Assembly (NCBI GenBank): GCA_937921305.1
Contig: CAKZSU010000006.1
Coordinates: forward strand, 1,089 to 65,088
Length of the DNA: 64,000 nucleotides
Direction: 5' to 3'
Source: an uncultured Patescibacteria group bacterium
GTDB lineage: Bacteria > Patescibacteriota > Microgenomatia > UBA10105 > UBA927
Every line of letters starts with the position of its first letter. Within the stretch, counting starts at the first letter, position 1. The position numbers and the translations under genes were made by a program. Below are positions 340 to 61,270 of the stretch, piece after piece. The notes beneath the pieces were generated by a model that was not told where the DNA came from, did no database searches, and saw nothing but the letters and a program-made list of their open reading frames with translations.

Positions 340-349
340 TTAATATCAT

Positions 350-1453: not shown

Positions 1454-1553
1454 AACATAGAAAAAATGATTTTTAAATTTATATTGTTATTCTTAACAAA
1501 TCTTAAAAATCATAAAAGATAAATAAAAATAATAACGTCTTTCCATAATTTAT

Positions 1554-2342: not shown

Positions 2343-2383
2343 GAAAAATTATCCTGTTTCTATAAAATTAATGAAACAAAGAA

Positions 2384-22031: not shown

Positions 22032-22064
22032 GAGGTTATTGTACTATAATGTGTCTCATACCGC
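22032..22064. promoter_or_regulatory. 33-bp divergent intergenic region with a TATAAT-like element. This is the strand-switch point of the locus.
   Basis: This is the only non-coding DNA between the start of 20793-22031 (-) and the start of 22065-23666 (+). The sequence aggttattgtactataatgtgtctcataccgc contains 'tactataat'. Confidence 0.4.
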
Positions 22065-23666
22065 ATGAAAAAAAGCCTTAATATTCTGATTATTCTTATT
22101 GTTCTTTCTTCGCTTCCGTTTATTCACATGTTTGTATCGCCTGACTTACCACACACAAGCGACGGAGAAGTGCAAATCCCTCGAATGGCTGCGTTTTATA
22201 AAGCGATTCGAGACGGACACATTCCTGTTCGATGGGCTGGAGATTTAAATTATGGCTATGGCATGCCGTTGTTTACTTTCATCTATCATACGCCGTTTTA
22301 TGTTTCTTCTTTTCTAATCGCTCTTGGCATCCCTCTTGTTTCTGTGTTTAAACTCACTCTTTATTTCAGTTTTCTATTATCTTGCATATTCATGTTTTTA
22401 TTCGCAAAGACATTTTTTAAGAGAGAGAAGATAGCATTCCTTGTCACGCTTCTATATCAATTCGCTCCGTATCATCTCGTTGATGTGCTAATCCGCGGAG
22501 CTATTGGAACAATCTATGTGTATGCTTTTTTCCCTCTTGTCCTCTGGGGATGTTTACGAGCGAACATTCCAATTGTCACAATTTCCCTCTCTCTTATGAT
22601 TCTTTCTCATAATTCTATGGCGCTTGTTTTCTTCTTTATTACTATTGGATTTCTCTTATTATTTGCTGAAAACAAACGAAAGGCGATTCTTGGCATATCT
22701 CTTGGGCTTGGTCTCGCTTCTTTTTATTGGATTCCAGCGCTTATTGAACATAAATATACCTATGGAGATCTCTTTATGAAGGATCTTTTTCGGGTGAACT
22801 TTCCTCAGTTTCATCACTTTTTCATTCCGAACCTATTTAACGATCCGCACCTTCGCGTTTCTGAGATTGTTGTTCACTGGGGAATAGCACACACACTTCT
22901 AACAGTTCTTGCTATCATCTTTTGGAGGTCATTGCCATCAACAATGAAAATTATGTCGATATTTTGTTATGCAATCATCATTATTTCAATTTTCTTCATG
23001 CATCCTCTATCAACGCCACTATGGGAACGCGTATCGTATCTTCGACAATTTCAATTTCCGTGGAGATTCTTGTCGGTCATCGTATTCGCCACAGCAATGC
23101 TCGGAGGAATAGTCATCCATCGATATTTACCAAGAAAACCATATCTTTTTATTATTCTCGCACTTATGATCGTGTTGCCGACAATGCACTATTGGAAACC
23201 AACACAAGGATATGATCAAATTCAAGATGAACAAGTATTTTGGAATTATCCATTGAATACCACATACTTTGGCGAAACAGATGTGATATGGTCAGCCGGA
23301 CCAGCAACTGCGTATCCTAAGTCCCGAGTACAAATCATAGAAGGAGAAGGAAGAATTCATAATTTCAGAAAAATAAATCACAAACAAACATTTTCTGTTA
23401 AATCGACAACAAGCGCTCGCATAGTCAGCCACACGCAGTACTTTCCCGGATGGAGAGTTTACATAAACGGTGAAAAAACCTCCATTCAATTTCAAGATCC
23501 GAATTGGCGAGGACTAATAACATTTTTTGTTCCTGAAGGAACACATGCTGTTCGCATACAATTTGAAGAAACTCCGATACGATTACTAGCAAATCTTATA
23601 TCTGTGGGATCCATAATTATATTGATAAGTTTTCTCATTAGAAAACATTTATGCAAACGCGCATAA
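22065..23666 (+). CDS. Family-B GT-C-like membrane protein
   Basis: TSDGEVQIPRMAAFYKAIRDGHIPVRWAGDLNYGYGMPLFTFIYHTPFY. The C-terminus has YFPGWRVYINGEKTSIQFQDPNWRGLITFFVPEGTHAVRIQFEET. Confidence 0.55.
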   Translation: MKKSLNILIILIVLSSLPFIHMFVSPDLPHTSDGEVQIPRMAAFYKAIRDGHIPVRWAGDLNYGYGMPLFTFIYHTPFYVSSFLIALGIPLVSVFKLTLYFSFLLSCIFMFLFAKTFFKREKIAFLVTLLYQFAPYHLVDVLIRGAIGTIYVYAFFPLVLWGCLRANIPIVTISLSLMILSHNSMALVFFFITIGFLLLFAENKRKAILGISLGLGLASFYWIPALIEHKYTYGDLFMKDLFRVNFPQFHHFFIPNLFNDPHLRVSEIVVHWGIAHTLLTVLAIIFWRSLPSTMKIMSIFCYAIIIISIFFMHPLSTPLWERVSYLRQFQFPWRFLSVIVFATAMLGGIVIHRYLPRKPYLFIILALMIVLPTMHYWKPTQGYDQIQDEQVFWNYPLNTTYFGETDVIWSAGPATAYPKSRVQIIEGEGRIHNFRKINHKQTFSVKSTTSARIVSHTQYFPGWRVYINGEKTSIQFQDPNWRGLITFFVPEGTHAVRIQFEETPIRLLANLISVGSIIILISFLIRKHLCKRA

Positions 23667-29153: not shown

Positions 29154-30838
29154 TTGTCATCATTACTTGTTTTGGAGCCTTACTGCGATTCTATAAGCTT
29201 GGAATCGTTCCTGACGGTTTTCATAGGGACGAAGCGTTTCTTGGCTATAACGCATATTCGTTATTAAAAACAGGAAAAGATATGTCTGGAAAACTCCTCC
29301 CCTTACATTTCGAATCATTTATTTATAGTCCAGGAGGATATAGCTACGCTAGCATACCATTTATCGCGATCTTTAGACTTGATGAATTTTCTACTCGATT
29401 CGCGTCGGCGTTTTTTGGAACACTGACAATTCCGTTATTATTTCTCTTAGCGTACAAACTATTTCCAAAAACACCACGTATTGGAATTCTGGGATCCTTT
29501 ATTCTCGTCATAACTCCTTGGCACATTAATCTTTCAAGAACCGCCACAGAAAACATTCTTGTTACATTTTTTCTTTTGCTCGGAATATATTTTTTATTTG
29601 TATGGAAAGACCATCAAAACAAACTTCTATTTCTTTTGCTTGGATTTATCTCAATCTCTCTTACGCTCGTTATATATCAAGCGCCAAGAGCATTTCTTCC
29701 TATGTTTATTCCATTTATGTTTAGTATCTTGTTCTTCGATAAAAAACGTTCTATATTTCTTCCATTAGTTTTGTATAGTATTTTCATACTTCTTCCTGTT
29801 GGATTAGTTTTAAGCAACTCTCATCTCTCAACAAGAATGAAAACTGTTAGTATTTGGAGCACAGAAAAAACATCGCTTATAATTCAAGAACAAATAAGAG
29901 AAGATGGCGTAAGAAATATTCATCCTCTTGTTTCTAGAATAACCCACAATAAAATTATCGGATATACGGAAGAATTTTTAAGAAATTACTTTCTTCATTT
30001 CTCCTACGATTTTCTCTTTACTGACAGAGGAATGCCAGACAGATATAGAATCCCGCATGCCGGACTTCTGTATATATCCATGATTCCTCTCGTGCTTTCA
30101 GGAATTTATTACCTCATGACGGAGAAAAAAAGGATCGGATGGTTTCTGATCGGCTGGATAAGTATCGGCATTATTGGAAGCGCATTAACATTTGATGATA
30201 TTCCAAATCTGCAACGAACCGTTTTTATCGTTCCAGCGGTTTCTCTAATCATAAGCGTTGGAACATATTCATTACTTGGCATACGATCAAACATTCTTAG
30301 AATTGCCACAACGGGGATCTTTCTTTTCGCTTTCTTTTTTGAAGGATATCGCTATCTTCATCATTATTATGTCCAACAAATCGTTCATCGTCCATGGTAT
30401 AGACAGGAAGGATACCGAGAATTAGTTCAATTCATTCAGAAAATTGAACATAAATACAACAATATCGTTATTACAAATAGAGAATCGGCGCCGACTATCT
30501 TTTTTCTCTTTTATACAAAATACGATCCAAAGCAATTTCAAGAAGAAACAAAATATTCCACATTTAGAGATTTTGATAGAATATCATTTTATAAATATAT
30601 TTTTTCAGAAGAAGAATGCCCATTGAAAGAAGTGTCCTATCAAAGCGAGAAGAATCCGAACATCATAGTAACGAATTGCTATGGAGAAAAAAATTCGCTT
30701 TATGTAAATTCTGGTCTGTGCAAAGAACCAAAAGTGTGTGCCAATATACTCCGCACTGTTCGAAGAAATGATGGAACGAATGCATTTTTTATCTTAGAAC
30801 CAACAGGTGTTACTTCTACTTCAACGTCTCTTCAATAA
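29129..30838 (+). CDS. Family-A GT-C glycosyltransferase (PMT/ArnT-like)
   Basis: HRDEAFLGYNAYSLLKTGKDMSGKLLPLHFESF. This is the last gene of the plus-strand block. It overlaps the convergent GT2 gene by 18 bp. Confidence 0.55.
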   Translation: MDKKTLFMIVIITCFGALLRFYKLGIVPDGFHRDEAFLGYNAYSLLKTGKDMSGKLLPLHFESFIYSPGGYSYASIPFIAIFRLDEFSTRFASAFFGTLTIPLLFLLAYKLFPKTPRIGILGSFILVITPWHINLSRTATENILVTFFLLLGIYFLFVWKDHQNKLLFLLLGFISISLTLVIYQAPRAFLPMFIPFMFSILFFDKKRSIFLPLVLYSIFILLPVGLVLSNSHLSTRMKTVSIWSTEKTSLIIQEQIREDGVRNIHPLVSRITHNKIIGYTEEFLRNYFLHFSYDFLFTDRGMPDRYRIPHAGLLYISMIPLVLSGIYYLMTEKKRIGWFLIGWISIGIIGSALTFDDIPNLQRTVFIVPAVSLIISVGTYSLLGIRSNILRIATTGIFLFAFFFEGYRYLHHYYVQQIVHRPWYRQEGYRELVQFIQKIEHKYNNIVITNRESAPTIFFLFYTKYDPKQFQEETKYSTFRDFDRISFYKYIFSEEECPLKEVSYQSEKNPNIIVTNCYGEKNSLYVNSGLCKEPKVCANILRTVRRNDGTNAFFILEPTGVTSTSTSLQ

Positions 30839-48737: not shown

Positions 48738-49907
48738 CTATGGAAAAAATCTTCTACCATTATTAGCGTAGCTCAAAAACAATACAAACATAACGGAACA
48801 CACTATCAAAGCGACAAATGCATCAAAGAATCGTTGAGGATATATTGCCTGATCACCGATGCCAAAGTATAAAAAAGGAATATACTTAAAAAGAAGAATA
48901 AATCCGACGATACCGATCGTCCAAAATAAACGAGACAGAGGAAGTAACGAAGCAAACGAAAGCATCCATAACCAATACCACGGCAAAAATTCTCTTCTCG
49001 TCAATACCAACAACGACGCAAGAGACATCAATGCAACTGCTTTCTTCGATGACCAACCGATAATAAATAAAGGGAGAAGAATAATAGTCATAAACTTTGT
49101 CGCCACAGACAATGAATAAAAGAGCAACGATGATAAAACATGTCGCTTTAACCACAAAAAATATGAAAGCAACGCAAACATCATCATGACAATGTCATTG
49201 TGTCCACTTACTAATACTTCAATAATCACCAACGGATGAAATGCAAACGAAGCCATCCCGATCAATCGATAAGTATTTTTCGTGATTGTCAGTATCTTGC
49301 CAATCATCCAAATCAAACCGATATATGAACCAATCTGAATAATTTTCATCGTCCACAACAAAAAAAGCATTTTCTCAAAACTCAACAGGTACTGAACTAT
49401 GCTTAAAAAAATCCAGAACGGCGTATACGGACTGTTCACATGCGTCCACCGCATAAATGAAAGCATCGCGTCAATACCTCGAAACGCCAACGGTTTTACT
49501 TCAAATGGGTTAACCCCATACACAAGAATCATCCGTGGATAAAAGATATAATTGAAAATATCGTACGAAAACGCGGCAGAATAAGAACATAAAAGAATAC
49601 CAGCCATGGCGAATACTATACACCACAGATGACGTTCAAAAATCATTCGCTTCCACAACGCAAATAACACACTTCCATACAATCCCATCATGGAAAGTAA
49701 TACCGAGATATATATCCCTGTCGCCAACGGACGTTGATAAAATCCGACATATTGAAATTCTTTCTGAATCGTTTGAACAATCGTTTCTTCAGAAAGCGTT
49801 AAACTCAAATCAATTTGCGTGTAACTGAAAAAAAATAACGCAAGAGCGTTTATAATCGAGAACAATAAAAGAAATAAGAAGACAAATCGTTGACGACGCG
49901 CATTCAT
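48738..49907 (-). CDS. Polytopic membrane protein ('GHND' family, paralog of 11973-13067)
   Basis: 389 aa. It shares ...VSGHNDIVMMMFALLSYFLW... and the overall TM pattern with 11973-13067. Confidence 0.4.
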   Translation of the reverse strand: MNARRQRFVFLFLLLFSIINALALFFFSYTQIDLSLTLSEETIVQTIQKEFQYVGFYQRPLATGIYISVLLSMMGLYGSVLFALWKRMIFERHLWCIVFAMAGILLCSYSAAFSYDIFNYIFYPRMILVYGVNPFEVKPLAFRGIDAMLSFMRWTHVNSPYTPFWIFLSIVQYLLSFEKMLFLLWTMKIIQIGSYIGLIWMIGKILTITKNTYRLIGMASFAFHPLVIIEVLVSGHNDIVMMMFALLSYFLWLKRHVLSSLLFYSLSVATKFMTIILLPLFIIGWSSKKAVALMSLASLLVLTRREFLPWYWLWMLSFASLLPLSRLFWTIGIVGFILLFKYIPFLYFGIGDQAIYPQRFFDAFVALIVCSVMFVLFLSYANNGRRFFP

Positions 49908-49909
49908 GC

Positions 49910-50662
49910 TTATTTATACAACCCTCGCCATGCGTTAAGCCGAATTGCAATAATATCCATAATCCCCTGAAGAGAGTCTTTGATGGGATTGACTCGCCTT
50001 GTCTCAACATAATGCCATTCTACCGGAACTTCCTTTATCTTGTATCCTTTTCTCTTTGCAACAAACAGAATTTCAATATCAAAACCAGCCGTAACCATCG
50101 CGCCGGAGACTTCGTGCCCTTTCCCATATCGCTTTAATGAACGGAATACATCATACGCGACTTCGCGACGAAACGCCTTAAATCCACACTGCGTATCAAT
50201 AATCCCGTGCAATCCAAGAATAATGCTTCGCAACGCCATAAAGCCTCGAGCCATAATCTTTCGTGACAATGGCGCTCCATGACGCTCACCACTTCTTGAG
50301 CCGATAACAACATCGTACCCTTTACCGAAAAATGGAAGCAATTTCCGAATCTCATGAAGCGGCGTTGCCTGATCAAGATCGGAAAATAATACGATATTCC
50401 CTTTTGCCGCAAGCATACCAGTAATAACTGTTGCCGCTTTTCCTTGATGAGGATTAAATATCGCCTGAAATCCTTTGTTTTGATCAACAAAATCGGCAAG
50501 CAACCGTTTTGTCATATCTGTCGATCCATCGTCAACAATAATCACTTCCCATGAAAAGAAAACATGCTGAAGATATCGAACAACCTTATCCAACGTACCT
50601 AATCGTATATTTGTTTCTTCATTGTACGCTGGAATAACAATAGAGATATCACATGGTTTCAT
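49910..50662 (-). CDS. GT2 polyprenyl-phosphate sugar synthase (DPM1-like)
   Basis: ISIVIPAYNEETNI...VIIVDDGSTDMTKRLL...GKAATVITGM...VLFSDLDQATP. Confidence 0.75.
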   Translation of the reverse strand: MKPCDISIVIPAYNEETNIRLGTLDKVVRYLQHVFFSWEVIIVDDGSTDMTKRLLADFVDQNKGFQAIFNPHQGKAATVITGMLAAKGNIVLFSDLDQATPLHEIRKLLPFFGKGYDVVIGSRSGERHGAPLSRKIMARGFMALRSIILGLHGIIDTQCGFKAFRREVAYDVFRSLKRYGKGHEVSGAMVTAGFDIEILFVAKRKGYKIKEVPVEWHYVETRRVNPIKDSLQGIMDIIAIRLNAWRGLYK

Positions 50663-52257
50663 TCTTCTCCTTTGTAATGAACGAGCTTAAATAATTTTAC
50701 TGGAAAGACATCCTTTTCTTCGACAATTTCCGCTCTTCCAAACCCAGCAACCTCCCAGCTAGCATGCCCTAATGGCTGACATGATGGATTTTCACAGATA
50801 ACAATAAGCTGATCGGTCACAGTTGTTCGTTCTGGATCTACGGACGGTTGTTGAATAACAATCGGCGATCTTCCCCATATTTCAAAGAAATATCGATATG
50901 CATGATCGGAGTTTGTCGCCGTGATTAATGCAAAATTAAATGGTTTTCCTTCCGAGAGATCCAACGCCGCCTTCGCGATTCGTTTTGTTTGCTCCAATTG
51001 ATTATTCGGAGGGTACATAAATGGTCTTCCCTGCCAATTATAGTAAAACAGTCCGCCCCATACGAACAAGCCAATCGCAATTCCCGCTTTTGTTTTCATA
51101 AGTTGCCAAAGAACAATGCCCACCGCAATAAACGGAAACGCAAAAAAAATGCCGAAGTAATAATCATAAATACTTCGCTGATAAAATCCAAACGACAAAA
51201 TAGACCATAAAAACCATCCAGATAATAACATTGCTCCCAACCATTGCTTACGCGTCAGTATATTTTGCGAAGATTTCCGAATAAAACGAATACTCATATA
51301 GACCACAACACCAATTGAAATATAGAGCGTCGTACGTATCAATATGACTAAAAGATTGATATACCAATCAGAATATCCATTCCACACTTCATATTGAGGC
51401 ATGCGAAACAACAACCGTCCATAAGAACGAAACGTAACATCATGAACAATCTCGATGAATTTTCCTGGAACAAACACTGTTTCATTTCCTCCCAGAAAAA
51501 AATTGATAAGCGCTGTTGTATTGGGAAACGAATGGCGAAATTCAAACGCCACAAACGGGGAAAGCATAAGAAAAAATCCACAACACCACACCGCAATATG
51601 CTTAAAAAGCGACCTTATTGAAGAAACAATAAGAATCAATAAAGAAAACGCGATGAGTATTGAATATAAATAATGAAATTGGATACCCATCCCAGACACC
51701 ACCCCAATAAAAAAAACAAGGATTGTCTTCTTCTGAACAATGAATCTCCATAAAAGGTAGAGAAGAAGCAAGGAAAAAAAAGGCACAAGGTTAGGATTCC
51801 ACGATGATCGAGCATACGCGATCACCAAGGGAGAAACAGCATATAAACTCGCTCCAACAAGCCCGACAACAGGATGAAACATTGTGCTTCCCACATGAAA
51901 GACTAAATAAATTGTCGCAATTCCGAATAACGCGACCATAATCGCGGGACCAACTGGATCAAGATTCCACAACCAAAGAAACGGCGCCATGAAGTAGTAA
52001 TACAATGGTCCAAGAAAGAATCCGCCGACCGACGCTGTTGGCCCAAGAAAGACCATGTCTCTATCAACGATCATCCGTTTCACAATTAATACATCTCTTC
52101 CTTCATCGCCTAAAAACGTTAAATACTCATGAATACGATGTAATCGAAGATATGCGCCAAGGAGCATAATTATTGTTATGCAAGAAATCAGAAGATGCTT
52201 TAAAGAACTACAATTCATGAGTGTAGTATACCTTACACCAATCTCTTTTTTCTCCAA
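50659..52257 (-). CDS. GT-C-like polytopic membrane protein with a DE motif (ArnT/PMT-like, orphan)
   Basis: 532 aa. ...HEYLTFLGDEGRDVLIVKRMIVDRDMVFLGPTASVGGFFLGPLYYY... after TM1, then about 11 TM helices. Confidence 0.5.
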   Translation of the reverse strand: MEKKEIGVRYTTLMNCSSLKHLLISCITIIMLLGAYLRLHRIHEYLTFLGDEGRDVLIVKRMIVDRDMVFLGPTASVGGFFLGPLYYYFMAPFLWLWNLDPVGPAIMVALFGIATIYLVFHVGSTMFHPVVGLVGASLYAVSPLVIAYARSSWNPNLVPFFSLLLLYLLWRFIVQKKTILVFFIGVVSGMGIQFHYLYSILIAFSLLILIVSSIRSLFKHIAVWCCGFFLMLSPFVAFEFRHSFPNTTALINFFLGGNETVFVPGKFIEIVHDVTFRSYGRLLFRMPQYEVWNGYSDWYINLLVILIRTTLYISIGVVVYMSIRFIRKSSQNILTRKQWLGAMLLSGWFLWSILSFGFYQRSIYDYYFGIFFAFPFIAVGIVLWQLMKTKAGIAIGLFVWGGLFYYNWQGRPFMYPPNNQLEQTKRIAKAALDLSEGKPFNFALITATNSDHAYRYFFEIWGRSPIVIQQPSVDPERTTVTDQLIVICENPSCQPLGHASWEVAGFGRAEIVEEKDVFPVKLFKLVHYKGEE

Positions 52258-53357
52258 ATAACTTTTGAATACATCGCATAGTTATAAAACAACCCTATCC
52301 CAACGCCAATGATGTAGAACAATCGATACCACGAAACGCCAAAGAGATGCGTTCCAATAAACACTGAACTTCCTTGAATGAGGATTGCGCCAAGCGCAGA
52401 AAGATTAAACTGGAAAAATTTTATTAAATACCTTCCGTGCTGAATTTTTCTATCGCGAAATGTCCACGCGTTATTGAAAATAAAATTCGAAATAATCGCA
52501 CATTCAGCGCCAATAACGCTTCCAATACTTGGGTGCAATCCAATAAGATGAACTGCAATCTCCAAAACAATCGTATTGATGATAAATCCAAAACCGCCTA
52601 CAACAAGAAACTTTTTAAAGTTTCCATAACGAAGCCAAATAAGACGCTGACGAAATACATATGCAAACACATCTCTGATATATTCAGACGGAGCTATCTT
52701 CGAATGACCAAATTTTCTATCAACAAATCGTATTGGAATTTCTTTAATTCTTGCTCCTGCTAACACTGCGTTGTGCAAAAACGCGATTTGAAACACATAA
52801 CCGGAATATTTTGCTACCTTTTGTTTATTTAATTCATAATATTTTTTATAAAATGCACGATACCCTCCTGTCCAATCATGCAAATATGAACATCCAAGAC
52901 CAAATCGAACAAACATATTACCAACCACGCTAAATATTTTTCTATGAATGCCCCAATCAGAAGGAATCGCGCCTCCCGGAATATATCTGCTTCCCACAGC
53001 TATATCATATCCATCATCCAATGCTTGAATAAACGAGGGAAGCACTGCTGGATCGTGTGAAAGATCAGCATCCATCTGTACAATAATATCTGCGCCCAGT
53101 TTCTCTACCGCATAGGTCATTCCTCGCAACAACGCCTTCCCTAATCCTTGTTTTTCCCCTATGAGAAGATGAACATCGTTATGCGTCTTCGCGTATTCTT
53201 TTACTGCGTCAGCCGTGCCATCGGGAGATGTATCATCAACCACAAGATAAGAACATGAATGATGAGGAAAAGAGGAGAACGCTTCCCGCGCTTTTTCCAA
53301 CAAAACGAGAATCGTATCCCGCTCATTATATGTGGGGAGAATAAGAACGACATTCAT
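52233..53357 (-). CDS. Bifunctional-architecture GT2 polyprenyl-phosphate sugar synthase fused to a C-terminal GtrA-like 4-TM domain
   Basis: 374 aa. N-terminal VVLILPTYNERDTI...YLVVDDTSPDGTADAVKEY...GLGKALLRGM...IIVQMDADLSHD. The C-terminal approx. 120 aa have four hydrophobic helices (FLVVGGFGFIINTIVLEIAVHLIG...), as in GtrA/Ppm1-type fusions. Confidence 0.7.
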   Translation of the reverse strand: MNVVLILPTYNERDTILVLLEKAREAFSSFPHHSCSYLVVDDTSPDGTADAVKEYAKTHNDVHLLIGEKQGLGKALLRGMTYAVEKLGADIIVQMDADLSHDPAVLPSFIQALDDGYDIAVGSRYIPGGAIPSDWGIHRKIFSVVGNMFVRFGLGCSYLHDWTGGYRAFYKKYYELNKQKVAKYSGYVFQIAFLHNAVLAGARIKEIPIRFVDRKFGHSKIAPSEYIRDVFAYVFRQRLIWLRYGNFKKFLVVGGFGFIINTIVLEIAVHLIGLHPSIGSVIGAECAIISNFIFNNAWTFRDRKIQHGRYLIKFFQFNLSALGAILIQGSSVFIGTHLFGVSWYRLFYIIGVGIGLFYNYAMYSKVIWRKKRLV

Positions 53358-53390: not shown

Positions 53391-54350
53391 CTATACATGC
53401 TCCCGCCAATAATTCAAAAGATCAGCCATGGTTTGTTCAAGCGGGATCATTGGTTGCCATCCTGTTTTCTGAACAAACTTTGTATTGTCTCCGATCAAGA
53501 CAGGAACATCCGACGGTCTCATCCTTGCCGGATCTTCTTTTATCTCTACCTTAACTTTACTCATACCAAGAAGCATCGTGAGGACATCTCCAATCCTCTC
53601 TGCTCTTCCTGTGCAAATGTTATAAACCTCTCCGGGGTCACAGTGCTCGACAGCGAGAAGATATCCCTTTACCATGTCGCGAACATCGGTATAATCCCGT
53701 TTTGCGTCAAGATTCCCCACATAAATCACCGGATCTTGTTTCTTTTTCTCTATCAGCGCAATCTGTTTCGCGAAGTTTGATTCAGCGAATGTGTCTCCTC
53801 GTCGAGGACCGGTATGATTAAATCCTCTTGTCCGCACAATTTTCAAACCATACGACTGATAATATTGATACCCTAAATAGTCCATTGCAACTTTTGAAAC
53901 AGCGTATGGAGAAAGCGGACGAAGCGGATTCGTTTCTTTTATTGGAAGCTCATTTTCGTACACCATGCCGTACTCTTCCGAGGAACACGCGATTTGAATA
54001 ACGCAATCAAGCTTTGCCCGTTTCACAGCTTCAAATAAATTCGCTGATCCAATAATGTTGACATCAAGCGTTACAGCGGGAGACACCCATGAAGTAGGGA
54101 CAAATGATTGGGCGGCAAGATGAAAGATGACATCAGGCCGAATACGTTCAATAGAGCTGTATAAACTATGCGAATCAAGGAGATCTGCCTCTTCAAGTTT
54201 TAATTTATCTTGAATATGTACAATGTGATCAAGCTTGCTTCGAACGCGAACATAACCGTACACTTCGTATCCTTTCTCTAGCAATAATTCCGCCATATGG
54301 CTTCCAACAAATCCAGCAATACCGGTAATAAGCGCTTTTTTCTTTTCCAT
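53391..54350 (-). CDS. NAD(P)-dependent SDR of the GDP-mannose 4,6-dehydratase / GDP-4-keto-6-deoxymannose reductase (Gmd/Rmd) family
   Basis: ALITGIAGFVGSHMAELLLEKGYEV...SPYAVSKVAMDY...RGFNHTGPRRG...YVGNLDAKRDYTDVRDMV...EDPARMRPSDVPVLIGDNTKFVQKTGWQP. These align with the Gmd/Rmd core. GFVGSH rather than GQDGSY favours the short Rmd-like/archaeal-type enzymes. Confidence 0.6.
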   Translation of the reverse strand: MEKKKALITGIAGFVGSHMAELLLEKGYEVYGYVRVRSKLDHIVHIQDKLKLEEADLLDSHSLYSSIERIRPDVIFHLAAQSFVPTSWVSPAVTLDVNIIGSANLFEAVKRAKLDCVIQIACSSEEYGMVYENELPIKETNPLRPLSPYAVSKVAMDYLGYQYYQSYGLKIVRTRGFNHTGPRRGDTFAESNFAKQIALIEKKKQDPVIYVGNLDAKRDYTDVRDMVKGYLLAVEHCDPGEVYNICTGRAERIGDVLTMLLGMSKVKVEIKEDPARMRPSDVPVLIGDNTKFVQKTGWQPMIPLEQTMADLLNYWREHV

Positions 54351-54390
54351 AGTCCTCCTTCTTATAAATCATTATAAACGATATTGTATA

Positions 54391-55689
54391 CTACATCCTT
54401 CCAACGCCATAGTACATATACCCTAACTTTTTAACAAACTCTGGATCATAAATGTTTCGACCGTCAAACAAAACCCGTTGTTTCAATCCTTTTGCAAGGC
54501 GAACAAGATCAAGGTTTCGAAACTCGTTCCACTCAGTAATCACCGCTACCACATCCACATCTTGGCAAGCGGAATACGGATCTTTTGCATAAATGACAGA
54601 AGACGGAAGAACTTTTTTTGCGTTTTCCATTGCTACAGGATCAAAGACGATAATGTCAGCTCCATGATTGAGAAGTTTTTCAATAATCGTGATCGATGGA
54701 GCTTCTCTCATATCGTCGGTGTCTGGCTTAAAAGAAAGACCAAGAATAGCGACTCTTTTTCCATGAATGTTTCCTTCAAAGTGCCTCAATATCTTTTCCA
54801 CGAAATGGTCTCTCATGGAGTGATTGACCTCATCAACCGCCTCAAGAAGACGAAAATCATACCCATGCCCCTTTGAAAGCGCAATCAATGCCTTCACATC
54901 TTTTGGAAAACAACTCCCTCCGTAGCCAACACCAGGATAGAGAAAACTTCTTCCAAGTCGACTATCAAGACCTACCCCCTCTAACACTTTTTCCGCATCC
55001 GCACCAACTCGTTCTGAAAGAACAGCGATCGCATTAGCAAAGGATATTTTTGTTGAAAGAAGCGAATTTGATGCATATTTAATAAGCTCCGCCGTCTCTA
55101 CATTGCATAAGACAAGGTTTGTGTTAATCGGTTTATGGAGATCAATCAACATATCTCTCGCTCGATCCGATGTTGTCCCAATCACGACGCGATCTGGATG
55201 CAATGTATCATGGATAGCGGTGCCTTCGCGAAGAAATTCCGGACACGAAGCAATGGCAAAACTTGCTCCCGGAGGTTTTACTTTTGCAAGAATTTCCCCA
55301 ACTTTCTTGTTGGTTCCCGGAGGCACCGTGCTTTTTGTGACAACCACTTTGTAACCCACTAAATTTTTTCCAATTTTTTCAGCAGCGGCGAAGACATTCG
55401 TCAAATCCGCTTCTCCTGACGGTTTCGGAGGCGTCCCAACGCAAATAAAGATAATTTCAGAAGGGACTACTGCTTCTTTATAATCCAATGTAAATAACAA
55501 TCGCCCCACGTCCACATTTCTCTTTACCAAATCAGATAATCCTGGTTCATAAAATGTCGCTTTTCCCTGCTTTAATATTTCTATTTTCTCTTTTGTTCTT
55601 CCCACAACCCATACAGTGTTGCCAAAATCGGCGAATACCGCGGCGGTAACAAGTCCAACATATCCATGACCAATAAATGCTATTGTCAT
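54391..55689 (-). CDS. ugd: UDP-glucose 6-dehydrogenase (nucleotide-sugar dehydrogenase family)
   Basis: MTIAFIGHGYVGLVTAAVFADFGN... (N-terminal Rossmann fold) and the ...GYGGSCFPKDV... catalytic-Cys motif of UDP-Glc/GDP-Man dehydrogenases. 432 aa. Confidence 0.8.
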   Translation of the reverse strand: MTIAFIGHGYVGLVTAAVFADFGNTVWVVGRTKEKIEILKQGKATFYEPGLSDLVKRNVDVGRLLFTLDYKEAVVPSEIIFICVGTPPKPSGEADLTNVFAAAEKIGKNLVGYKVVVTKSTVPPGTNKKVGEILAKVKPPGASFAIASCPEFLREGTAIHDTLHPDRVVIGTTSDRARDMLIDLHKPINTNLVLCNVETAELIKYASNSLLSTKISFANAIAVLSERVGADAEKVLEGVGLDSRLGRSFLYPGVGYGGSCFPKDVKALIALSKGHGYDFRLLEAVDEVNHSMRDHFVEKILRHFEGNIHGKRVAILGLSFKPDTDDMREAPSITIIEKLLNHGADIIVFDPVAMENAKKVLPSSVIYAKDPYSACQDVDVVAVITEWNEFRNLDLVRLAKGLKQRVLFDGRNIYDPEFVKKLGYMYYGVGRM

Positions 55690-56552
55690 ACTATTTCCTT
55701 TTTTATCGTTTTCAAACCTTCTTCGAATGAAATTGCTTGAAAGCCTAGTTTAGTAATTTTAGCATTGGAAATAAGAAGTTGAAAAGCCCTCGGAGCTCTC
55801 CCTTTATAAAACTCCTGAGCCGATGTCTTCTGCACCAAAGAAAAAGAATACCCAAACACTTTTGCGACACTCTGCGCGGCTTCATACGCGCTTATCGCCG
55901 ACGGACCTACCACATGATAGACGCCAAACGAGTTTCGCTCGACGAGAAGACGAATACCCTCCGCAATCGTTTGAAGATGCGTTGGAACAAATATCTGATC
56001 CACGGGCGCCGAAAGAGTCTTTCCTTGTTTTAATACCTGAATCATCCGCTGCACAAAATCAGGACGAGATCCGCAAAGCGCTCCATACGGAAACGAGATA
56101 CGAACAATCAACGCATTTTTCCCAAGCATTCTTACTTCTTTTTCACCCATATATTTTGTCATTGCATACCATCCAATCGGGCTTGGCTTATGTCTTTCAG
56201 TAAACACTTTTTTTCCGCCGGGAAACACAAAATCTGTGGAAAGATAAAGAAGTTTTTTCCTGTACTTTCGGCATGCTTCAACGATATGTCTTGTTCCCAA
56301 AACATTCACTTTCCATGTTGAGCTCTCCTCGCCAAGATCGATCTCTTGTTCCGCTTCATCAACATTTGTTTTTGCCGCAAAATGAAATACCCACGATGCG
56401 TCCGATGAAGCAATATGCCATTGAATATCGTGACGATTTGTGATATCAACGCCTGTTTCTAAACTCAAATTTTCAAAAGTAAAAGAAGGAGAGAGAAATT
56501 GAACAACATATGAACCAACCAATCCTGACAATCCTGTACCTATAATCTTCAT
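55686..56552 (-). CDS. rmlD: dTDP-4-dehydrorhamnose reductase-like (RmlD family)
   Basis: 288 aa. MKIIGTGLSGLVGSYVVQFL...VFHFAAKTNVDEAE...YAMTKYMGE... The RmlD-type short SDR lacks a large N-terminal extension. There is a 4-bp overlap with rmlB. Confidence 0.7.
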   Translation of the reverse strand: MKIIGTGLSGLVGSYVVQFLSPSFTFENLSLETGVDITNRHDIQWHIASSDASWVFHFAAKTNVDEAEQEIDLGEESSTWKVNVLGTRHIVEACRKYRKKLLYLSTDFVFPGGKKVFTERHKPSPIGWYAMTKYMGEKEVRMLGKNALIVRISFPYGALCGSRPDFVQRMIQVLKQGKTLSAPVDQIFVPTHLQTIAEGIRLLVERNSFGVYHVVGPSAISAYEAAQSVAKVFGYSFSLVQKTSAQEFYKGRAPRAFQLLISNAKITKLGFQAISFEEGLKTIKKEIV

Positions 56553-57565
56553 AGACTCTTTCCATATTGCTGTTCATAATAGGATCGATATGCACCGCTT
56601 TTCACCCGCTGCCACCACTCTTGATGCTCTTGATACCAACGAATAGTCTCCTTCAACCATGTATCAAAATCATGCAATGGTTCCCAGCCTAATTCGTTTC
56701 GTATTTTTGACCAATCAATCGCATATCGCCGATCGTGTCCTGGACGATCTTTCACAAATTCTATATATGACTCATCTTTTCCCATGTACGCAAGAATTTT
56801 TTTGACAATAGAAAGATTATTGATATCTTCTGTTAATCCGCCGATACAATAGGTTTCTCCGATTTTCCCATGACGCAATACCATATCTATTGCCCGACAA
56901 TGATCTTCCACATACAACCAATCTCGCACATATAACCCATCGCCGTAAATAGGAACCTTTTTCCCTTCCATGAGATTCGTAATCGCTAGCGGAATAAGCT
57001 TCTCTGGAAACTGAAACGGACCATAATTGTTGGAACAATTTGTGATCGTTATCGGCAATCTATAGGTATAAAAATACGCTCGAACAAGATGATCTGACGC
57101 CGCTTTCGTCGCGGAATACGGACTCCTCGGTCTATACGGCGTCTGCTCGGAAAATATTTGCTTTTCAGAAAGATCCAACGATCCAAAGACTTCATCGGTG
57201 GACACATGGTGGAATCGTTGAATTTTCCTTTCTCGAGCTACCTCGAGCAACACATGCGTTCCAACAATATTTGTGCGAACAAACGGAGAAGGATCAAGGA
57301 TAGAACGATCCACATGGCTTTCCGCGGCAAAATGCACAACCACATCGCATCCATCCATCGCACTTCGAACCGCGTTTTTATCGCAAATATCCCCCTTAAT
57401 GAACACATCACAAGGGTTATTCTTTACTTCTTGGAGATTTTCTAAGTTTCCTGCGTATGTCAGCGCGTCAAATGTTACGACCGTATCTTCCGGATAATGC
57501 CGGAGCCAGTAGAGAACAAAATTGGCGCCGATAAATCCAGCGCCCCCCGTGACGAAGAGTTTCAC
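56549..57565 (-). CDS. rmlB: dTDP-glucose 4,6-dehydratase
   Basis: MKLFVTGGAGFIGANFVLYWLRHYPEDTVVTFDALTYAGNLENLQEV...YSATKAASDHLVRAY... This is the near-canonical RmlB N-terminus and YxxxK. 338 aa. Confidence 0.85.
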   Translation of the reverse strand: MKLFVTGGAGFIGANFVLYWLRHYPEDTVVTFDALTYAGNLENLQEVKNNPCDVFIKGDICDKNAVRSAMDGCDVVVHFAAESHVDRSILDPSPFVRTNIVGTHVLLEVARERKIQRFHHVSTDEVFGSLDLSEKQIFSEQTPYRPRSPYSATKAASDHLVRAYFYTYRLPITITNCSNNYGPFQFPEKLIPLAITNLMEGKKVPIYGDGLYVRDWLYVEDHCRAIDMVLRHGKIGETYCIGGLTEDINNLSIVKKILAYMGKDESYIEFVKDRPGHDRRYAIDWSKIRNELGWEPLHDFDTWLKETIRWYQEHQEWWQRVKSGAYRSYYEQQYGKSL

Positions 57566-58299
57566 AACTTTCCCTCTTTTACCATCTGCGCGACTTCATT
57601 ATTCGCGCGAAGCAATTCATCATACGATGTTCCAGCGTCAACCCACCAGTCAATAATTTCACAATACAAGTTTCCTTTGTTTTTGTAAATGTTATTTAAG
57701 TCTGTAACTTCTAATTCTCCTCGCTGAGACGGTGTTAACTGTTGAATATATGCAAACACATGATGATCGTACATATAAATGCCTGTTTGCGCGATATCAG
57801 ATTTTGGATACTCAGGCTTCTCCTCAATAGAAATCACTTTTCCTGACTCATCAATCTCTATGACGCCATATTGCCGTGACTCAGTGTCTTTATGAACACC
57901 AAAAATAACCGCGCCTTCCTCTCGAGATTCAAATCGGTCTACCGATGGACGAAGATCGTACGAAAAAATATTGTCGCCGAGAAGCACAAGAATTTTCTCA
58001 TTATTGGCAAAATCTCTCGCTAAAGAAATCGCATCGGCGATTCCGCCTTTTGGATTCTTTTGAATAGCGTAATAGAGCGTCAATCCAAAATCTTCTCCCC
58101 CTTTCAAAAGCCCGGCAAACTGACCAACAGCCTCAGGAGACGATGTAATCAAAACTTCTTTAATGCCAGATTTCACCATCGCTTCGAGCGAATAGTAAAT
58201 CATCGGTTTATTGTAAATGGGAAGCAAGTGTTTATTCGTGACAAGCGTCAATGGTCGAAGCCTTGTCGCTAATCCTCCTGCTAAAATAACACCTTTCAT
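57562..58299 (-). CDS. rmlA: Glucose-1-phosphate thymidylyltransferase, short form
   Basis: MKGVILAGGLATRLRPLTLVTNKHLLPIYNKPMIYYSLEAMVKSGIKEVLI is the sugar-nucleotidyltransferase signature. 245 aa, short archaeal/CPR-type form. Confidence 0.8.
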   Translation of the reverse strand: MKGVILAGGLATRLRPLTLVTNKHLLPIYNKPMIYYSLEAMVKSGIKEVLITSSPEAVGQFAGLLKGGEDFGLTLYYAIQKNPKGGIADAISLARDFANNEKILVLLGDNIFSYDLRPSVDRFESREEGAVIFGVHKDTESRQYGVIEIDESGKVISIEEKPEYPKSDIAQTGIYMYDHHVFAYIQQLTPSQRGELEVTDLNNIYKNKGNLYCEIIDWWVDAGTSYDELLRANNEVAQMVKEGKL

Positions 58300-58307
58300 A
58301 TATGCGA

Positions 58308-58580
58308 TTAAATAAAGAGGACAGTATATAATATCGCCAATCCAATCCCGGCAATCAACACGTATTCTATCATAACCTTGACATATAAATCACCTTCAAT
58401 ATAGTGATAGACAATCCCCCACAAAATATACGACATCGCGGCGATAAATCCTACAAGGAACTGGAGATCTGGTTTCCCCTGAAAAAGAGAAATTGCAAGA
58501 ATCGTAAATCCAAAAATAATACAAAGAACAAGTGGATGAAGATATGTATGATGAATAATGTTTTTATTATGATGCTTCAT
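58308..58580 (-). CDS. Small 3-TM membrane protein, hypothetical
   Basis: The likely start is MKHHNKNIIHHTY..., where an ATGA-type overlap with the stop of the CAP gene is expected. It has three hydrophobic helices. The track ORF extends to 58694 inside the upstream gene. Confidence 0.35.
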   Translation of the reverse strand: MKHHNKNIIHHTYLHPLVLCIIFGFTILAISLFQGKPDLQFLVGFIAAMSYILWGIVYHYIEGDLYVKVMIEYVLIAGIGLAILYTVLFI

Positions 58581-59503
58581 AAGACGCTTCCATGAATAAT
58601 CATATTGCTTGCGATCAAGATTGCCAAGAAAAATAATCCATGGGCGAAGGTCGATCCAACAGCTCGAACTTTCTTCTTCTTTGCCATAATCCATATATCC
58701 AACAACAACACGCCAAGAAACATGCCTCCGAACATCATCGTGATATCTCGACGCACTTTTACAACATCAACCTGTGGCATAGAGATAACGGATGGAAACG
58801 GAATCTCATTGATAGACGCCGCAACTTGCGGAACTTCAACAGAATTTGTCGGCGATCCAGCATCAGCAATCATCGATTCAGATGCAGTAGATTCTTCTGT
58901 CGGCTCATCTACCGCTTGACTTACCGGACGAGCGGACGGACGAGCGCCAAACATTTGCACCACAAGTGTTGTTTCTTCTCCTTGAAGTTTTCCATTCACA
59001 ACAGCGAATCCAACATCTTTGTATCCCTTTTTAAGGATATTATCCCGATGACTCGAAGACGCCATCCATGCGTTGACAACGCCGGTGCTATCCTGAAAAT
59101 TCTTCGCCAAATTTTCACCTGCGACGGTATATTTATACCCAGAAGCAACAATAAAATCCCACGGCGTCTTTCCATCAGGAGACACATGTGCCCAGTAATT
59201 TTTTGCAAACATATCTTCTGCTTTTTTCGCAGCCGCTTGAGACAATTGCTGATCAAGACGAAGGGGAGACAATCCAGCCTCTATCCGTTTTTCATTAGTT
59301 TTTCTTAATAATTCCTGGACTTGAATATTTGTCGCGTATCCCAACACATCAGGAAACCATTGTGTCATCATCCGAAGACCAATATTTATGACAAGAAATG
59401 CCAATAAATACAGCATCAAGACATCGATGTGCAACGCCTTTGCCCTATGATTATTGCCGTGATGAGGGATAAACAAATGCTTTACCAACGAAAGAAGACT
59501 CAT
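58577..59503 (-). CDS. CAP/SCP (PR-1-like) domain protein with an N-terminal TM anchor and a C-terminal TM segment
   Basis: ...NEKRIEAGLSPLRLDQQLSQAAAKKAEDMFAKNYWAHVSPDGKTPWDFIVASGYKYTVAGENLAKNFQDSTGVVNAWMASSSHRDNILKKGYKDVGFAV... matches the CAP domain motifs (HxxNxxR, GENL, HRxNIL). There are hydrophobic segments near both termini. Confidence 0.65.
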   Translation of the reverse strand: MSLLSLVKHLFIPHHGNNHRAKALHIDVLMLYLLAFLVINIGLRMMTQWFPDVLGYATNIQVQELLRKTNEKRIEAGLSPLRLDQQLSQAAAKKAEDMFAKNYWAHVSPDGKTPWDFIVASGYKYTVAGENLAKNFQDSTGVVNAWMASSSHRDNILKKGYKDVGFAVVNGKLQGEETTLVVQMFGARPSARPVSQAVDEPTEESTASESMIADAGSPTNSVEVPQVAASINEIPFPSVISMPQVDVVKVRRDITMMFGGMFLGVLLLDIWIMAKKKKVRAVGSTFAHGLFFLAILIASNMIIHGSVL

Positions 59504-59553: not shown

Positions 59554-60123
59554 TTATTGTTGAGGAATAGCGTACACAACACGACGTTTTTGATCAAATG
59601 CGCCTTCGCAGGTATACAATGTTAATCGATTATCCTCAGAAAAGATAGCCTCCACATCATGTTTTGATACCGTTTTTGATTCAATTACTGTATACAAATG
59701 ACTTCTCTCTCCTTGATGCAATTCAATTGCATCGCCGGGGACAAGTTTATGGAGATCGCCCCACAAATTTTTCCAGTTATGCGCATACAAAATCACATTC
59801 CCTTCGCCGGGAACCGCGGATGTAGAAAGCCACGCAACGCTAGTATCAAACAGTTGCCACGCGTTATCTTTAACAATTGCTGCTTGAATAACATGCTGTT
59901 TATTAATTTTTGGAATATAGATGCTTGTTGGCGGTTGTTTTGTTGTGCTTTTCCTCTCGTGCTGATCCACAAGATCGACTACGAATGAAGCGTTCATAGG
60001 CACATAAAACTGTTGATCGCGAATTGTCGTTGCAACCCGATAAGAAGTATAAAAAAGAACTGCTGGAACCAGAAAGACAAAAAGACGAATAATCTTATCG
60101 CGAAAATTTATGATATATGCCAT
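59554..60123 (-). CDS. Sortase-family transpeptidase
   Basis: 189 aa with an N-terminal TM anchor, ...VILYAHNW... (catalytic His region) and ...NRLTLYTCEG... (the TLxTC catalytic-Cys motif). Confidence 0.7.
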   Translation of the reverse strand: MAYIINFRDKIIRLFVFLVPAVLFYTSYRVATTIRDQQFYVPMNASFVVDLVDQHERKSTTKQPPTSIYIPKINKQHVIQAAIVKDNAWQLFDTSVAWLSTSAVPGEGNVILYAHNWKNLWGDLHKLVPGDAIELHQGERSHLYTVIESKTVSKHDVEAIFSEDNRLTLYTCEGAFDQKRRVVYAIPQQ

Positions 60124-61219
60124 AGAAGATCGTTCCCATTAATAAAGACATCGCTATGGCACTGTATTGGTCTAATCGACCCGTCGCGCCCAAAACATCT
60201 GTAGAAACACCCAACACCTGTCCTCCGCCAATCGAAGTAGACACTCCTAACACTTGACCGCCATTTCCAACAGATCGCTCGTCAGAAGGATCTCCCGGCA
60301 TGCAATCATTGATTCCGCGAACTTGAAAATAATATGTCGCGTTGGGATCCAAACCTCCTATGACAAACGATGTGATATTTCCCGTAGAAGGAACGCCAAA
60401 TTGATAACTCCCAGAAGATAATCCATAGGATATCGCATATGTTGTTACCGGAGCAACTTCTGTCCACGATAAACTAACCGTCGTTGGACTCGTTCGAGTA
60501 ATCGACGTAATCGATGGCTTTGCTGGTTTTCCCGCAGGACACTGTTGCGCTGTTGGATTCGTATTCGATCCGCCACCATTTGATCCTGAAGAAGATTGTG
60601 ATTGAGATGTCGGCATCGGTGTTGGCAACGAAGATGGAGACATCAGCGGTGTTGGCGTTATTGTTGGCGTCGGTCCGCCAGTATTACCCTCATTACATGG
60701 TTCGGCGTTAACCGCTCTCACGCCATCAACATCATATCCATCGGCAATGTCATCGGTAAAAATCGTCGGATCGCTGATATCTGTTATTCTGACATAGTTT
60801 ACACATGAGAATCCGCTTGGCATATCGACTTGTCCATCTTGGACAACTGTTCCAGCGAGAACCCAATTGACACCATCTTGAGATACTTCTATTCTTGCAC
60901 GCTCCTCTGGATAATTTGGCCAAGTAGATTCAACAACAATCACCCCATCACGAACGCCATTATCAAAACGAAGTACGATATTCCCGCCAAACCCAAGGGA
61001 AAAGAAATATCCATCGACATTACTATTTTCCGCCGGACCAAGCGCGGAAGAAGGATTGCTTCGTATTGCCGGCACTGGATTGCCATTCTTCATTAATCCT
61101 TGTGAATAGGAGATAACCTCGTCAGCCCATGGACCCAAGCCATCGGGTGTCGCAGCGAAAACAATAAAAAAAGACAACGAAACAAAAAAGAATAGTGAAA
61201 GAAAAAAGAGTTTTTTCAT
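60095..61219 (-). CDS. Secreted surface protein. Signal peptide, jelly-roll/lectin-like N-domain, Pro/Thr/Ser-rich linker, fibronectin type III domain, and a C-terminal sorting-signal-like tail.
   Basis: The likely start is MKKLFFLSLFFFVSLSFFIVFAA (signal peptide). The linker is TPTITPTPLMSPSSLPTPMPTSQSQSSSGSNGGGSN. The FN3-like region is PSITSITRTSPTTVSLSWTEV...YYFQVRGIND. The C-terminus is ...GGQVLGVSTSIGGGQVLGVSTDVLGATG-RLDQYSAIAMSLLMGTIFYGIY-HKFSR (motif, hydrophobic stretch, basic tail). Confidence 0.6.
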   Translation of the reverse strand: MKKLFFLSLFFFVSLSFFIVFAATPDGLGPWADEVISYSQGLMKNGNPVPAIRSNPSSALGPAENSNVDGYFFSLGFGGNIVLRFDNGVRDGVIVVESTWPNYPEERARIEVSQDGVNWVLAGTVVQDGQVDMPSGFSCVNYVRITDISDPTIFTDDIADGYDVDGVRAVNAEPCNEGNTGGPTPTITPTPLMSPSSLPTPMPTSQSQSSSGSNGGGSNTNPTAQQCPAGKPAKPSITSITRTSPTTVSLSWTEVAPVTTYAISYGLSSGSYQFGVPSTGNITSFVIGGLDPNATYYFQVRGINDCMPGDPSDERSVGNGGQVLGVSTSIGGGQVLGVSTDVLGATGRLDQYSAIAMSLLMGTIFYGIYHKFSR

Positions 61220-61270
61220 CCTATATTTTTTTAATAGGGGTATTATATAGAGAAGAATTATTTTTGTCAA

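Follow-up and report, generated by a model that had tools for sequence, protein, structure and literature searches.

Which sugar does a rhamnose operon make when it lacks rmlC, the gene for the 3,5-epimerase, and where would the epimerisation come from? The question is raised by an rmlA-rmlB-rmlD operon, followed by ugd and by a gene for a short-chain dehydrogenase/reductase (SDR) of the GMD/RMD family, in a 64,000-nucleotide stretch (the window) of contig CAKZSU010000006.1 from an uncultured Patescibacteria group bacterium. Patescibacteria are hard to grow and their envelope is largely unknown; what can be learnt about their surface sugars comes mainly from gene content. The best explanation of the block, judged from its genes and those of its relatives, is that it supplies the nucleotide sugars within a very large island for surface glycosylation in a Gottesmanbacteria-like genome of the candidate phyla radiation (CPR). 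An earlier note on this DNA had described the operon as lacking rmlC and as followed by ugd and a Gmd/Rmd-like SDR, and gene identities and cupin searches bear out that description. The note was also right to keep two options alive, a 6-deoxy-D-hexose product or an rmlC elsewhere, the search having covered ~82 of 565 kb. Automatic annotation would list the rhamnose pathway as incomplete; seen against related genomes, the gap is a stable trait shared by a whole clade and not noise. New with respect to the earlier note are the clade-wide deletion of a gene slot, a reductase without the residue pair of the known bifunctional enzymes and a smaller number of assured sugars. At most, the block is a variant of a known pathway.

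Enzymes of the block and the search for a cupin

All five open reading frames (ORFs) are on the minus strand, in the order rmlA-rmlB-rmlD-ugd-SDR, and their coordinates are exactly those first proposed. Matches in Pfam, NCBIfam and the PDB bear out the families: RmlA in its short form, a canonical RmlB, a reductase of the RmlD family, Ugd and an SDR of the GMD/RMD family. The N-termini of all five proteins align with those of homologues, so that the start codons can be trusted. From the 5' end of the block, its features are:

57562-58299, minus strand: rmlA-like gene, 245 aa; PF00483 over residues 2-237, 195 bits
57562-57565, minus strand: empty slot, the GTGA overlap of the rmlA stop and rmlB start; a cupin gene lies here in sister lineages
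56549-57565, minus strand: rmlB, 338 aa, GTG start; dTDP-glucose 4,6-dehydratase
55686-56552, minus strand: gene for an RmlD-family NAD(P)H-dependent 4-ketoreductase, 288 aa; PF04321 over residues 1-286, 172.7 bits
54391-55689, minus strand: ugd, 432 aa; three UDPG_MGDP_dh domains (PF03721, PF00984, PF03720)
54351-54390, minus strand: 40-nt spacer from ugd to the SDR gene, with a strong AAGGAGG ribosome-binding site just 5' of the SDR ATG
53391-54350, minus strand: gene for a GMD/RMD-family extended SDR, 319 aa; best PDB match Rmd 2pk3

RmlB passes the equivalog model TIGR01181 (479.6 bits against a cut-off of 365.1), is 52% identical to E. coli RfbB over its full length and has the catalytic STDE and YSATK motifs. 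RmlA lacks the ~45 C-terminal residues of the long form of this enzyme and has GGLATRL as its N-terminal motif of the GGxGTRL type; its best NCBIfam model, TIGR01207, gives 240.5 bits, under the cut-off of 360.65. Its fold and closest similarities are those of RmlA: the top 21 PDB matches are all RmlA, led by the likewise short B. anthracis enzyme 3hl3 (E 1e-64), and identity to E. coli RfbA is 40%. A tblastn alignment of RfbA that ran on for 27 codons beyond the rmlA stop proved, on inspection, to be a spurious extension. Together, RmlA and RmlB would make dTDP-4-keto-6-deoxy-D-glucose.

In agreement with the earlier note, no RmlC was detected in the window: tblastn with E. coli RfbC gave a best E of 0.75, and searches with four cupin types from the operons of relatives and with a hidden Markov model (HMM) built from 43 sequences gave no HMM or phmmer match at E <= 10 in a six-frame translation of the 64 kb. 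The search was carried outwards through the end genes of the window, over ~10 kb on the right (locus L095) and ~7.6 kb on the left (locus L096), where the same searches found no cupin either. In all, ~82 kb were searched of the source, a metagenomic contig of 565,362 bp (ena:ERZ6864144:c_000000188073), of which the window occupies ~387.6-451.6 kb. The sole family-less ORF of 170-190 aa, a 170-aa frame at 13064-13576, was considered as an RmlC and rejected, having no Pfam match and the character of a secreted helical protein.

The reductase is RmlD-like in every catalytic feature compared. Its motifs GTGLSGLVG (GxGxxGxxG), STD and YAMTK (YxxxK) align with those of E. coli RfbD, the Thr/Tyr/Lys triad is kept, none of the 49 columns invariant in a set of 30 family members has changed, and the top seven PDB matches are all RmlD, the best being 3sc6 of B. 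anthracis (E 2e-31). It scores 159.4 bits against the RmlD equivalog TIGR01214, under the cut-off of 224.05; homologues number 1259 in the protein collection at E <= 1e-10, and the name that NCBI gives to homologues is just 'SDR family oxidoreductase'. At the positions of Cys109 and His179 in E. coli Fcl the window enzyme has Asp107 and Tyr156, the same Asp/Tyr as in E. coli RfbD. The Mimivirus enzyme L780, which has 289 aa and takes dTDP-sugars too, requires Cys108 and Lys175 for its epimerase activity (PMC9614988). Because Asp and Tyr replace the Cys plus His/Lys pair, the reductase cannot stand in for RmlC by the known bifunctional mechanism.

The tight packing of these genes needs to be read with care. 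The first four junctions had been described as 4-bp overlaps, which holds for three of them (GTGA at rmlA/rmlB, ATGA at rmlB/rmlD and rmlD/ugd) and fails for ugd/SDR, where the 40-nt spacer lies; the SDR gene is separated from the next gene, which encodes a GT2-GtrA fusion, by 33 nt. Overlaps of this kind are a habit of a compact genome and no special property of the block; 14 of the ~51 co-directional junctions in the window have them, as counted from coordinates. The coupled chain also runs on beyond the block, upstream at the junction of the genes for a CAP-domain and a small membrane protein and downstream at PMT_2/GT2. A scan of the intergenic gaps of the block found no terminator-like site.

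The rmlA/rmlB slot in related genomes

We compared the neighbourhoods of 8 reductase homologues from the protein collection and of 80 metagenome loci; the names on homologues are Candidatus Gottesmanbacteria or Patescibacteria group. The conserved order is rmlA-X-rmlB-rmlD-ugd-SDR-GT2/GtrA-PMT_2-GT2-MptA_B, in which X differs by lineage. The rmlA-rmlB position is thus a hot spot that holds different cupins, a NUDIX gene or nothing:

Slot X, 157-159-aa PF00908 protein: L009, L011, L016, L020, L023 and L036
Slot X, 139-144-aa cupin with weak FdtA, Cupin_2 and Cap5F C-terminal similarity: L008, L025 and L034
Slot X, NUDIX gene: L007 (8034-8573) and L017 (2395-2937)
Slot X, empty: the window and L010, L092, L094 and L093 (reductases 63, 61, 61 and 58% identical to that of the window, in that order)

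Where a cupin is present it can be packed as tightly as its neighbours, the slot gene of L008 and of L009 overlapping the genes on both sides by 4 bp. L007 and L039 have a very small cupin in another place, between rmlB and rmlD (96 aa, at 9650-9940, in L007; at 1138-1545 in L039). The 179-aa ORF between rmlA and rmlB of L007, a candidate rmlC by its size, turned out to encode the NUDIX protein; a NUDIX gene, gmm, also stands beside gmd and fcl in the colanic acid cluster of E. coli.

A neighbour-joining tree of the reductases places the five cupin-less sequences in one group nested among cupin-bearing ones (267/300 bootstraps). By tree and junctions, the loss of the in-operon cupin is a clean, scarless, clade-wide deletion that left rmlA, rmlB and rmlD intact. 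In the same tree L008, with a cupin of the 139-aa type, is nested among lineages with the 157-aa type, which points to replacement of the slot cupin in place. Further away, CPR homologues of the reductase (37% identity; L029 and L067) are encoded directly 3' of a canonical 180-aa RmlC, so that the reductase family normally has an RmlC-type enzyme as partner. A cupin is present in 21 of the 27 loci that have rmlA, rmlB and rmlD with adequate flanks. The remaining six, two of which do not look like CPR, have no local cupin, and unlinked arrangements therefore exist. All four rml genes are described in one CPR genome paper; our literature search met no account of a CPR rml operon that lacks rmlC.

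The slot cupins of the sister lineages themselves differ from standard RmlC enzymes. The 157-aa family is highly conserved, and its profile matches 5417 proteins. Its member in L009 scores 66.5 bits against PF00908, has as its best PDB match the uncharacterised 'dTDP sugar isomerase' 3ejk and matches RmlCs at ~1e-9. Compared with E. coli RmlC, the 157-aa cupins keep the catalytic His62, His119 and Tyr132 and are without equivalents of Lys72 and Asp169; the 139-aa cupins retain just His62 and Tyr138. The block has both parallels with and differences from the Gram-positive rmlACBD operon of the B. anthracis type. The same enzymes are encoded, B. anthracis 3hl3 and 3sc6 are the nearest solved relatives of the window's RmlA and reductase, and sister Patescibacteria have the order rmlA-cupin-rmlB-rmlD. 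By contrast, the window has no rmlC, its reductase scores under the equivalog cut-off, and the cupin of the relatives is either a truncated, 157-aa member of the RmlC family or of another type.

The reductase is the least conserved protein of the block in every comparison, cupin-bearing lineages included. The ratio of RmlD to RmlB identity is 0.84 inside the cupin-less clade and 0.74 for the cupin-bearing lineages; across the two groups it is 0.70. Mean reductase identity inside the clade is 63.6%. The reductase shows no sign of decay and is, to judge from this conservation, probably still in use. Just four residues are fixed solely in the reductases of the cupin-less clade (G113, S153, A245 and A256), none of them catalytic. 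G113, S153 and A256 adjoin conserved motif segments, which we take to be substrate-binding from solved RmlD structures. Because S153 and A245 are also found in E. coli RfbD, these clade-specific residues give no clear signal of a new specificity.

Routes to a 6-deoxyhexose

Our preferred reading, held at somewhat less than an even chance, is that an unlinked cupin elsewhere on the contig supplies the epimerisation and that the product is of the L-rhamnose type. RmlA and RmlB would furnish dTDP-4-keto-6-deoxy-D-glucose, which the unlinked epimerase and the RmlD-family enzyme would turn into an L-rhamnose-type sugar. Ugd would contribute UDP-glucuronate, and the SDR a GDP-6-deoxyhexose, for which it would either depend on an unlinked Gmd or serve as the dehydratase. 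These sugars would then be moved to polyprenyl-phosphate carriers and used by GT-C enzymes that decorate the cell surface. In Mycobacterium tuberculosis, too, the epimerase of the rhamnose pathway is encoded away from the other rml genes. The P. putida epimerase RmlC2/PP_0265 is likewise encoded away from the rml operon (PMC8184846). The likeness to P. putida lies in a local rmlC that is absent, or not the sole copy, and in a pathway completed from another locus; the difference is that the epimerase is identified there, whereas none is present here in the ~82 kb searched. We give the unlinked epimerase this standing because the reductase family is usually partnered with RmlC, because unlinked epimerases are known (PMC8184846) and because the search has covered ~15% of the contig.

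Several observations weigh against an unlinked epimerase. None of the four cupin types is found in ~82 kb of glycosylation region, where such a gene would be expected, and none in the other four cupin-less genomes, where the search covered 16-21 kb about the operon. Among the best 120 of the 5417 proteins that match the 157-aa profile, none is assigned to the contigs of the window or of its relatives, a weak negative as regards a relocated copy. Genomes of Patescibacteria are small, and redundant gene copies are rare in them. The position of G113, S153 and A256, next to the segments presumed to bind substrate, would also fit a change of substrate. Moreover, L-rhamnose is no more than a presumed product even in the cupin-bearing relatives, because the slot cupins do not have the full set of RmlC residues.

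A rival reading is a pathway that does without an epimerase, in which the reductase acts directly on dTDP-4-keto-6-deoxy-D-glucose to give dTDP-D-quinovose or dTDP-D-fucose and the slot is an exchangeable cassette that sets the identity of the 6-deoxyhexose. This we consider possible but rather doubtful. It is in keeping with a clean clade-wide deletion after which rmlA, rmlB and rmlD persisted through long divergence (reductases 58-63% identical to that of the window), with the absence of a cupin both from the ~82 kb here and from the surroundings of the operon in four relatives, and with a slot whose content varies by lineage and, on the indication of L008, is replaced in place. The clade-specific changes beside presumed substrate-binding segments, the score of the reductase under the RmlD equivalog cut-off and the noncommittal name of its homologues at NCBI count on the same side. 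An epimerase-free route to dTDP-D-fucose, consisting of the three enzymes RmlA, RmlB and Fcd, is known from A. actinomycetemcomitans and G. tepidamans, and the block would share its three steps if the reductase takes the RmlB product directly; the resemblance drawn is one of route, and orthologues of the window's reductase usually stand in operons with RmlC-type genes. Canonical RmlD is not known to act on the 4-keto sugar before epimerisation, and the reductase shows no burst of change, every residue invariant among the 30 family members being kept. Nor do the downstream glycosyltransferases differ between cupin-bearing and cupin-less lineages, although a change of donor from beta-L to alpha-D should call for another transferase, and the cupin search reached ~82 kb of the genome. 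A wider version, in which the clade has an RmlC-independent pathway with an exchangeable slot cassette and the SDR, for which no Gmd partner is found nearby, is a self-sufficient dehydratase/reductase, seems to us equally questionable. Were the reductase indeed to work without an epimerase, the RmlD family would gain a new activity and surface-sugar identity a simple genetic switch; with an unlinked epimerase, the finding would be an ordinary one.

Other explanations are weaker still. RmlA and RmlB could mainly feed another branch, in which DegT and WecD-like enzymes lead to a dTDP-4-acetamido-4,6-dideoxyhexose and the RmlD-like protein works on a different substrate or plays a minor part; genes for a GNAT (WecD-like), an SDR and a DegT protein do lie just left of the window (L096 14162-16958), and the reductase is the least conserved product of the block throughout. 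We think this unlikely: all scores are under the curated cut-offs, the best model for the aminotransferase is that of a UDP-sugar enzyme (PseC), the DegT/WecD-like genes are ~55 kb away from the rml block, and this reading would not account for five diverged genomes in which rmlD, placed between rmlB and ugd, is intact and overlap-coupled. That the reductase is a bifunctional 3,5-epimerase/4-reductase resembling plant NRS/ER, Mimivirus L780 or GDP-fucose synthase is very improbable, even though it belongs to the same broad SDR group and is of the same size as L780, a 289-aa enzyme of dTDP-sugars (PMC9614988). The missing Cys + His/Lys pair excludes a bifunctional enzyme of the known type: Asp and Tyr occupy the positions of Fcl Cys109 and His179, as they do in E. 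coli RfbD, and L780 depends on Cys108 and Lys175 (PMC9614988). In addition, no NRS/ER, L780 or GMER structure is among the PDB matches of the reductase, and separate cupins are encoded alongside orthologues that have the same motifs.

An assembly or binning artefact might be suspected of a contig assembled from metagenomes, yet we give it next to no credence, and for the junction itself it is refuted. The same rmlA/rmlB junction is shared by five contigs that come from separate assemblies or read sets and differ from the window by 1-3 nt over 4.9 kb, and the slot is also empty in four diverged relatives from other projects. Compared with L002-L006 over the 4.9-kb block, the window differs from the 565-kb contig by 1 nt and from the other assemblies of the same population by <=3 nt; these 1-3 single-nucleotide polymorphisms are too few for a test of selection.

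Ugd, the SDR and the surrounding glycosylation island

The remaining two genes of the block bear on how many activated sugars it can supply. Ugd scores 452 bits against TIGR03026, over the cut-off of 189.8, and its best model is the UDP-glucose-specific TuaD at 520 bits, under the cut-off of 700. The SDR, at 75-88% identity to close relatives the most conserved product of the block, matches in the PDB Rmd 2pk3 (1.6e-86), the GDP-heptose 4,6-dehydratase 7us5 (2.7e-67), P. aeruginosa Rmd 6x3b (2e-53) and GMDs (~1e-48); against the Gmd model TIGR01472 it reaches 190.5 bits, compared with a cut-off of 415, and it is 33% identical to E. coli Gmd. Its motifs SSE and NHTGPRRGDTF resemble those of E. 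coli Gmd (NHESPRRGETF) and of 7us5, whereas solved RMDs carry NHIGPGQ and the counterparts encoded next to a Gmd in relatives carry NHIGPRQS. Such Gmd-adjacent counterparts, 43-47% identical to the window's SDR, occur in L015, L017 and L034; in each of these loci the genes that come next encode a true Gmd (49-51% identity to E. coli Gmd) and a UXS-like decarboxylase. This synteny supports an RMD-type role and a branch from Ugd to UXS in those genomes.

The window differs on both counts. No Gmd is encoded within the ~82 kb of window and flanks, and no UXS-like decarboxylase lies 3' of ugd or beside the SDR gene in the window or in the closer relatives, whose SDR genes have no adjacent Gmd either. 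The SDR would be read either as a GDP-4-keto-6-deoxy-D-mannose reductase-like enzyme or as a GDP-sugar 4,6-dehydratase. Because of the missing Gmd, a GDP-6-deoxyhexose donor presupposes a Gmd in another place or dehydratase activity of the SDR itself, and we infer that the Gmd-less SDR may itself be a dehydratase or a dehydratase/reductase. The GDP-D-rhamnose pathway of A. thermoaerophilus and P. aeruginosa, Gmd plus Rmd, is a partial model: the SDR is nearest to A. thermoaerophilus Rmd 2pk3, and Gmd is adjacent in L015, L017 and L034, but in the ~82 kb here there is none, the motif is PRRGDTF and not GPGQ, and the GDP-heptose 4,6-dehydratase 7us5 is also resembled. The earlier estimate of at least four activated sugars was, for these reasons, too generous. 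Its WecB component is confirmed as a WecB-like PF02350 protein (350-1453); its GDP-6-deoxyhexose and UXS-dependent components have no Gmd within ~82 kb and no UXS after ugd behind them.

The genes on either side of the block suggest where the sugars go:

61242-61270, minus strand: candidate promoter TTGACA-17-TATAAT, 12/12 consensus matches
60095-61270, minus strand: fn3 surface protein, upstream and co-directional
59554-60123, minus strand: sortase, upstream and co-directional
58577-59503, minus strand: CAP-domain protein, upstream and co-directional
58308-58580, minus strand: small DUF5656-like membrane protein; 4-bp overlap with the CAP gene, ends 8 nt before rmlA
52233-53357, minus strand: GT2-GtrA fusion, PF00535 + PF04138
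50659-52257, minus strand: PMT_2 GT-C glycosyltransferase (Pfam, conserved synteny)
49910-50662, minus strand: GT2 (Pfam, conserved synteny)
48738-49907, minus strand: MptA_B-family GT-C (Pfam, conserved synteny)

The GT2-GtrA fusion, which gives weak matches to ArnC-type and dolichyl-phosphate hexose transferase models and whose gene keeps its place 3' of the SDR gene in every close relative, is likely a polyprenyl-phosphate sugar synthase joined to a GtrA-type flippase domain, and likely the first consumer of the sugars of the block. The PMT_2, GT2 and MptA_B genes (48738-52257) are, by family, predicted extracytoplasmic glycosyltransferases whose synteny with the block is conserved. A GT2-GtrA fusion followed by PMT_2/GT-C, with many YfhO and PMT_2 proteins in the window, recalls three-component extracytoplasmic glycosylation (GtrA/GtrB/GT-C; ArnC/ArnT; CsbB/YfhO); what differs is the scale, with ~20 GT-C-type proteins in one island.

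Upstream, the order fn3-sortase-CAP-DUF5656 is the same in L010, L092, L093 and L094, and this synteny is restricted to the cupin-less clade; cupin-bearing relatives have TsaE/TsaD 5' of the CAP gene instead of fn3 and sortase. The perfect sigma-70 consensus at 61242-61270 coincides with the TTG that annotation takes as the start of the fn3 ORF, whose real start is probably further downstream, and the element may be the promoter of the whole fn3-sortase-CAP-rml array. In the scan of the region, promoter-like and terminator-like sites were no commoner than in shuffled sequence. Upstream gene calls vary among assemblies, with a CAP protein of 264 or 308 aa and an fn3 protein of 374 or 391 aa.

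Glycosylation proteins fill nearly all of the 64 kb and both flanks that were read, as one island. Its ~20 GT-C-type membrane proteins belong to the PMT_2, YfhO, PTPS_related, MptA_B and GT87 groups and are accompanied by >13 GT2 and several GT4 proteins, two Wzx-type flippases and one pyruvyl transferase. As signatures of rhamnosyltransferases, the matches of the island's GT2 proteins to TIGR01556 are uninformative (<=55 bits against a cut-off of 200), and the 64-kb window has no tRNA gene and no Rfam family. The trio left of the window that enters into one of the rival explanations is, by NCBIfam:

L096 14162-16958 (0.7-3.5 kb left of window position 1): GNAT, 316-aa SDR and DegT aminotransferase

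The best NCBIfam models of the GNAT are WecD models at 46 and 39 bits, below their cut-offs, and the aminotransferase scores 327 bits with the PseC model and 232 bits with a WecE-type model, both also below cut-off. The trio may draw on the RmlB product as a second sink, leading to a 4-acetamido-4,6-dideoxyhexose, or may form a UDP-sugar pathway. Further along the same flank, an RfbH/DegT-like gene at L096 19515-20686 is broken into adjacent ORFs of 153 and 237 aa, which suggests a frameshifted pseudogene or a sequencing error.

Within the island the coding strand switches at 20793-22065, with a divergent pair near 22.05 kb, and at 30821-30838, where a convergent pair of ORFs (30.82-30.84 kb) overlaps by 18 bp. 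G+C content is 0.28-0.33 at the left end of the window (1-4000), as against 0.40-0.42 in the rml block, and this low-G+C end could be a segment of other origin inside the island.

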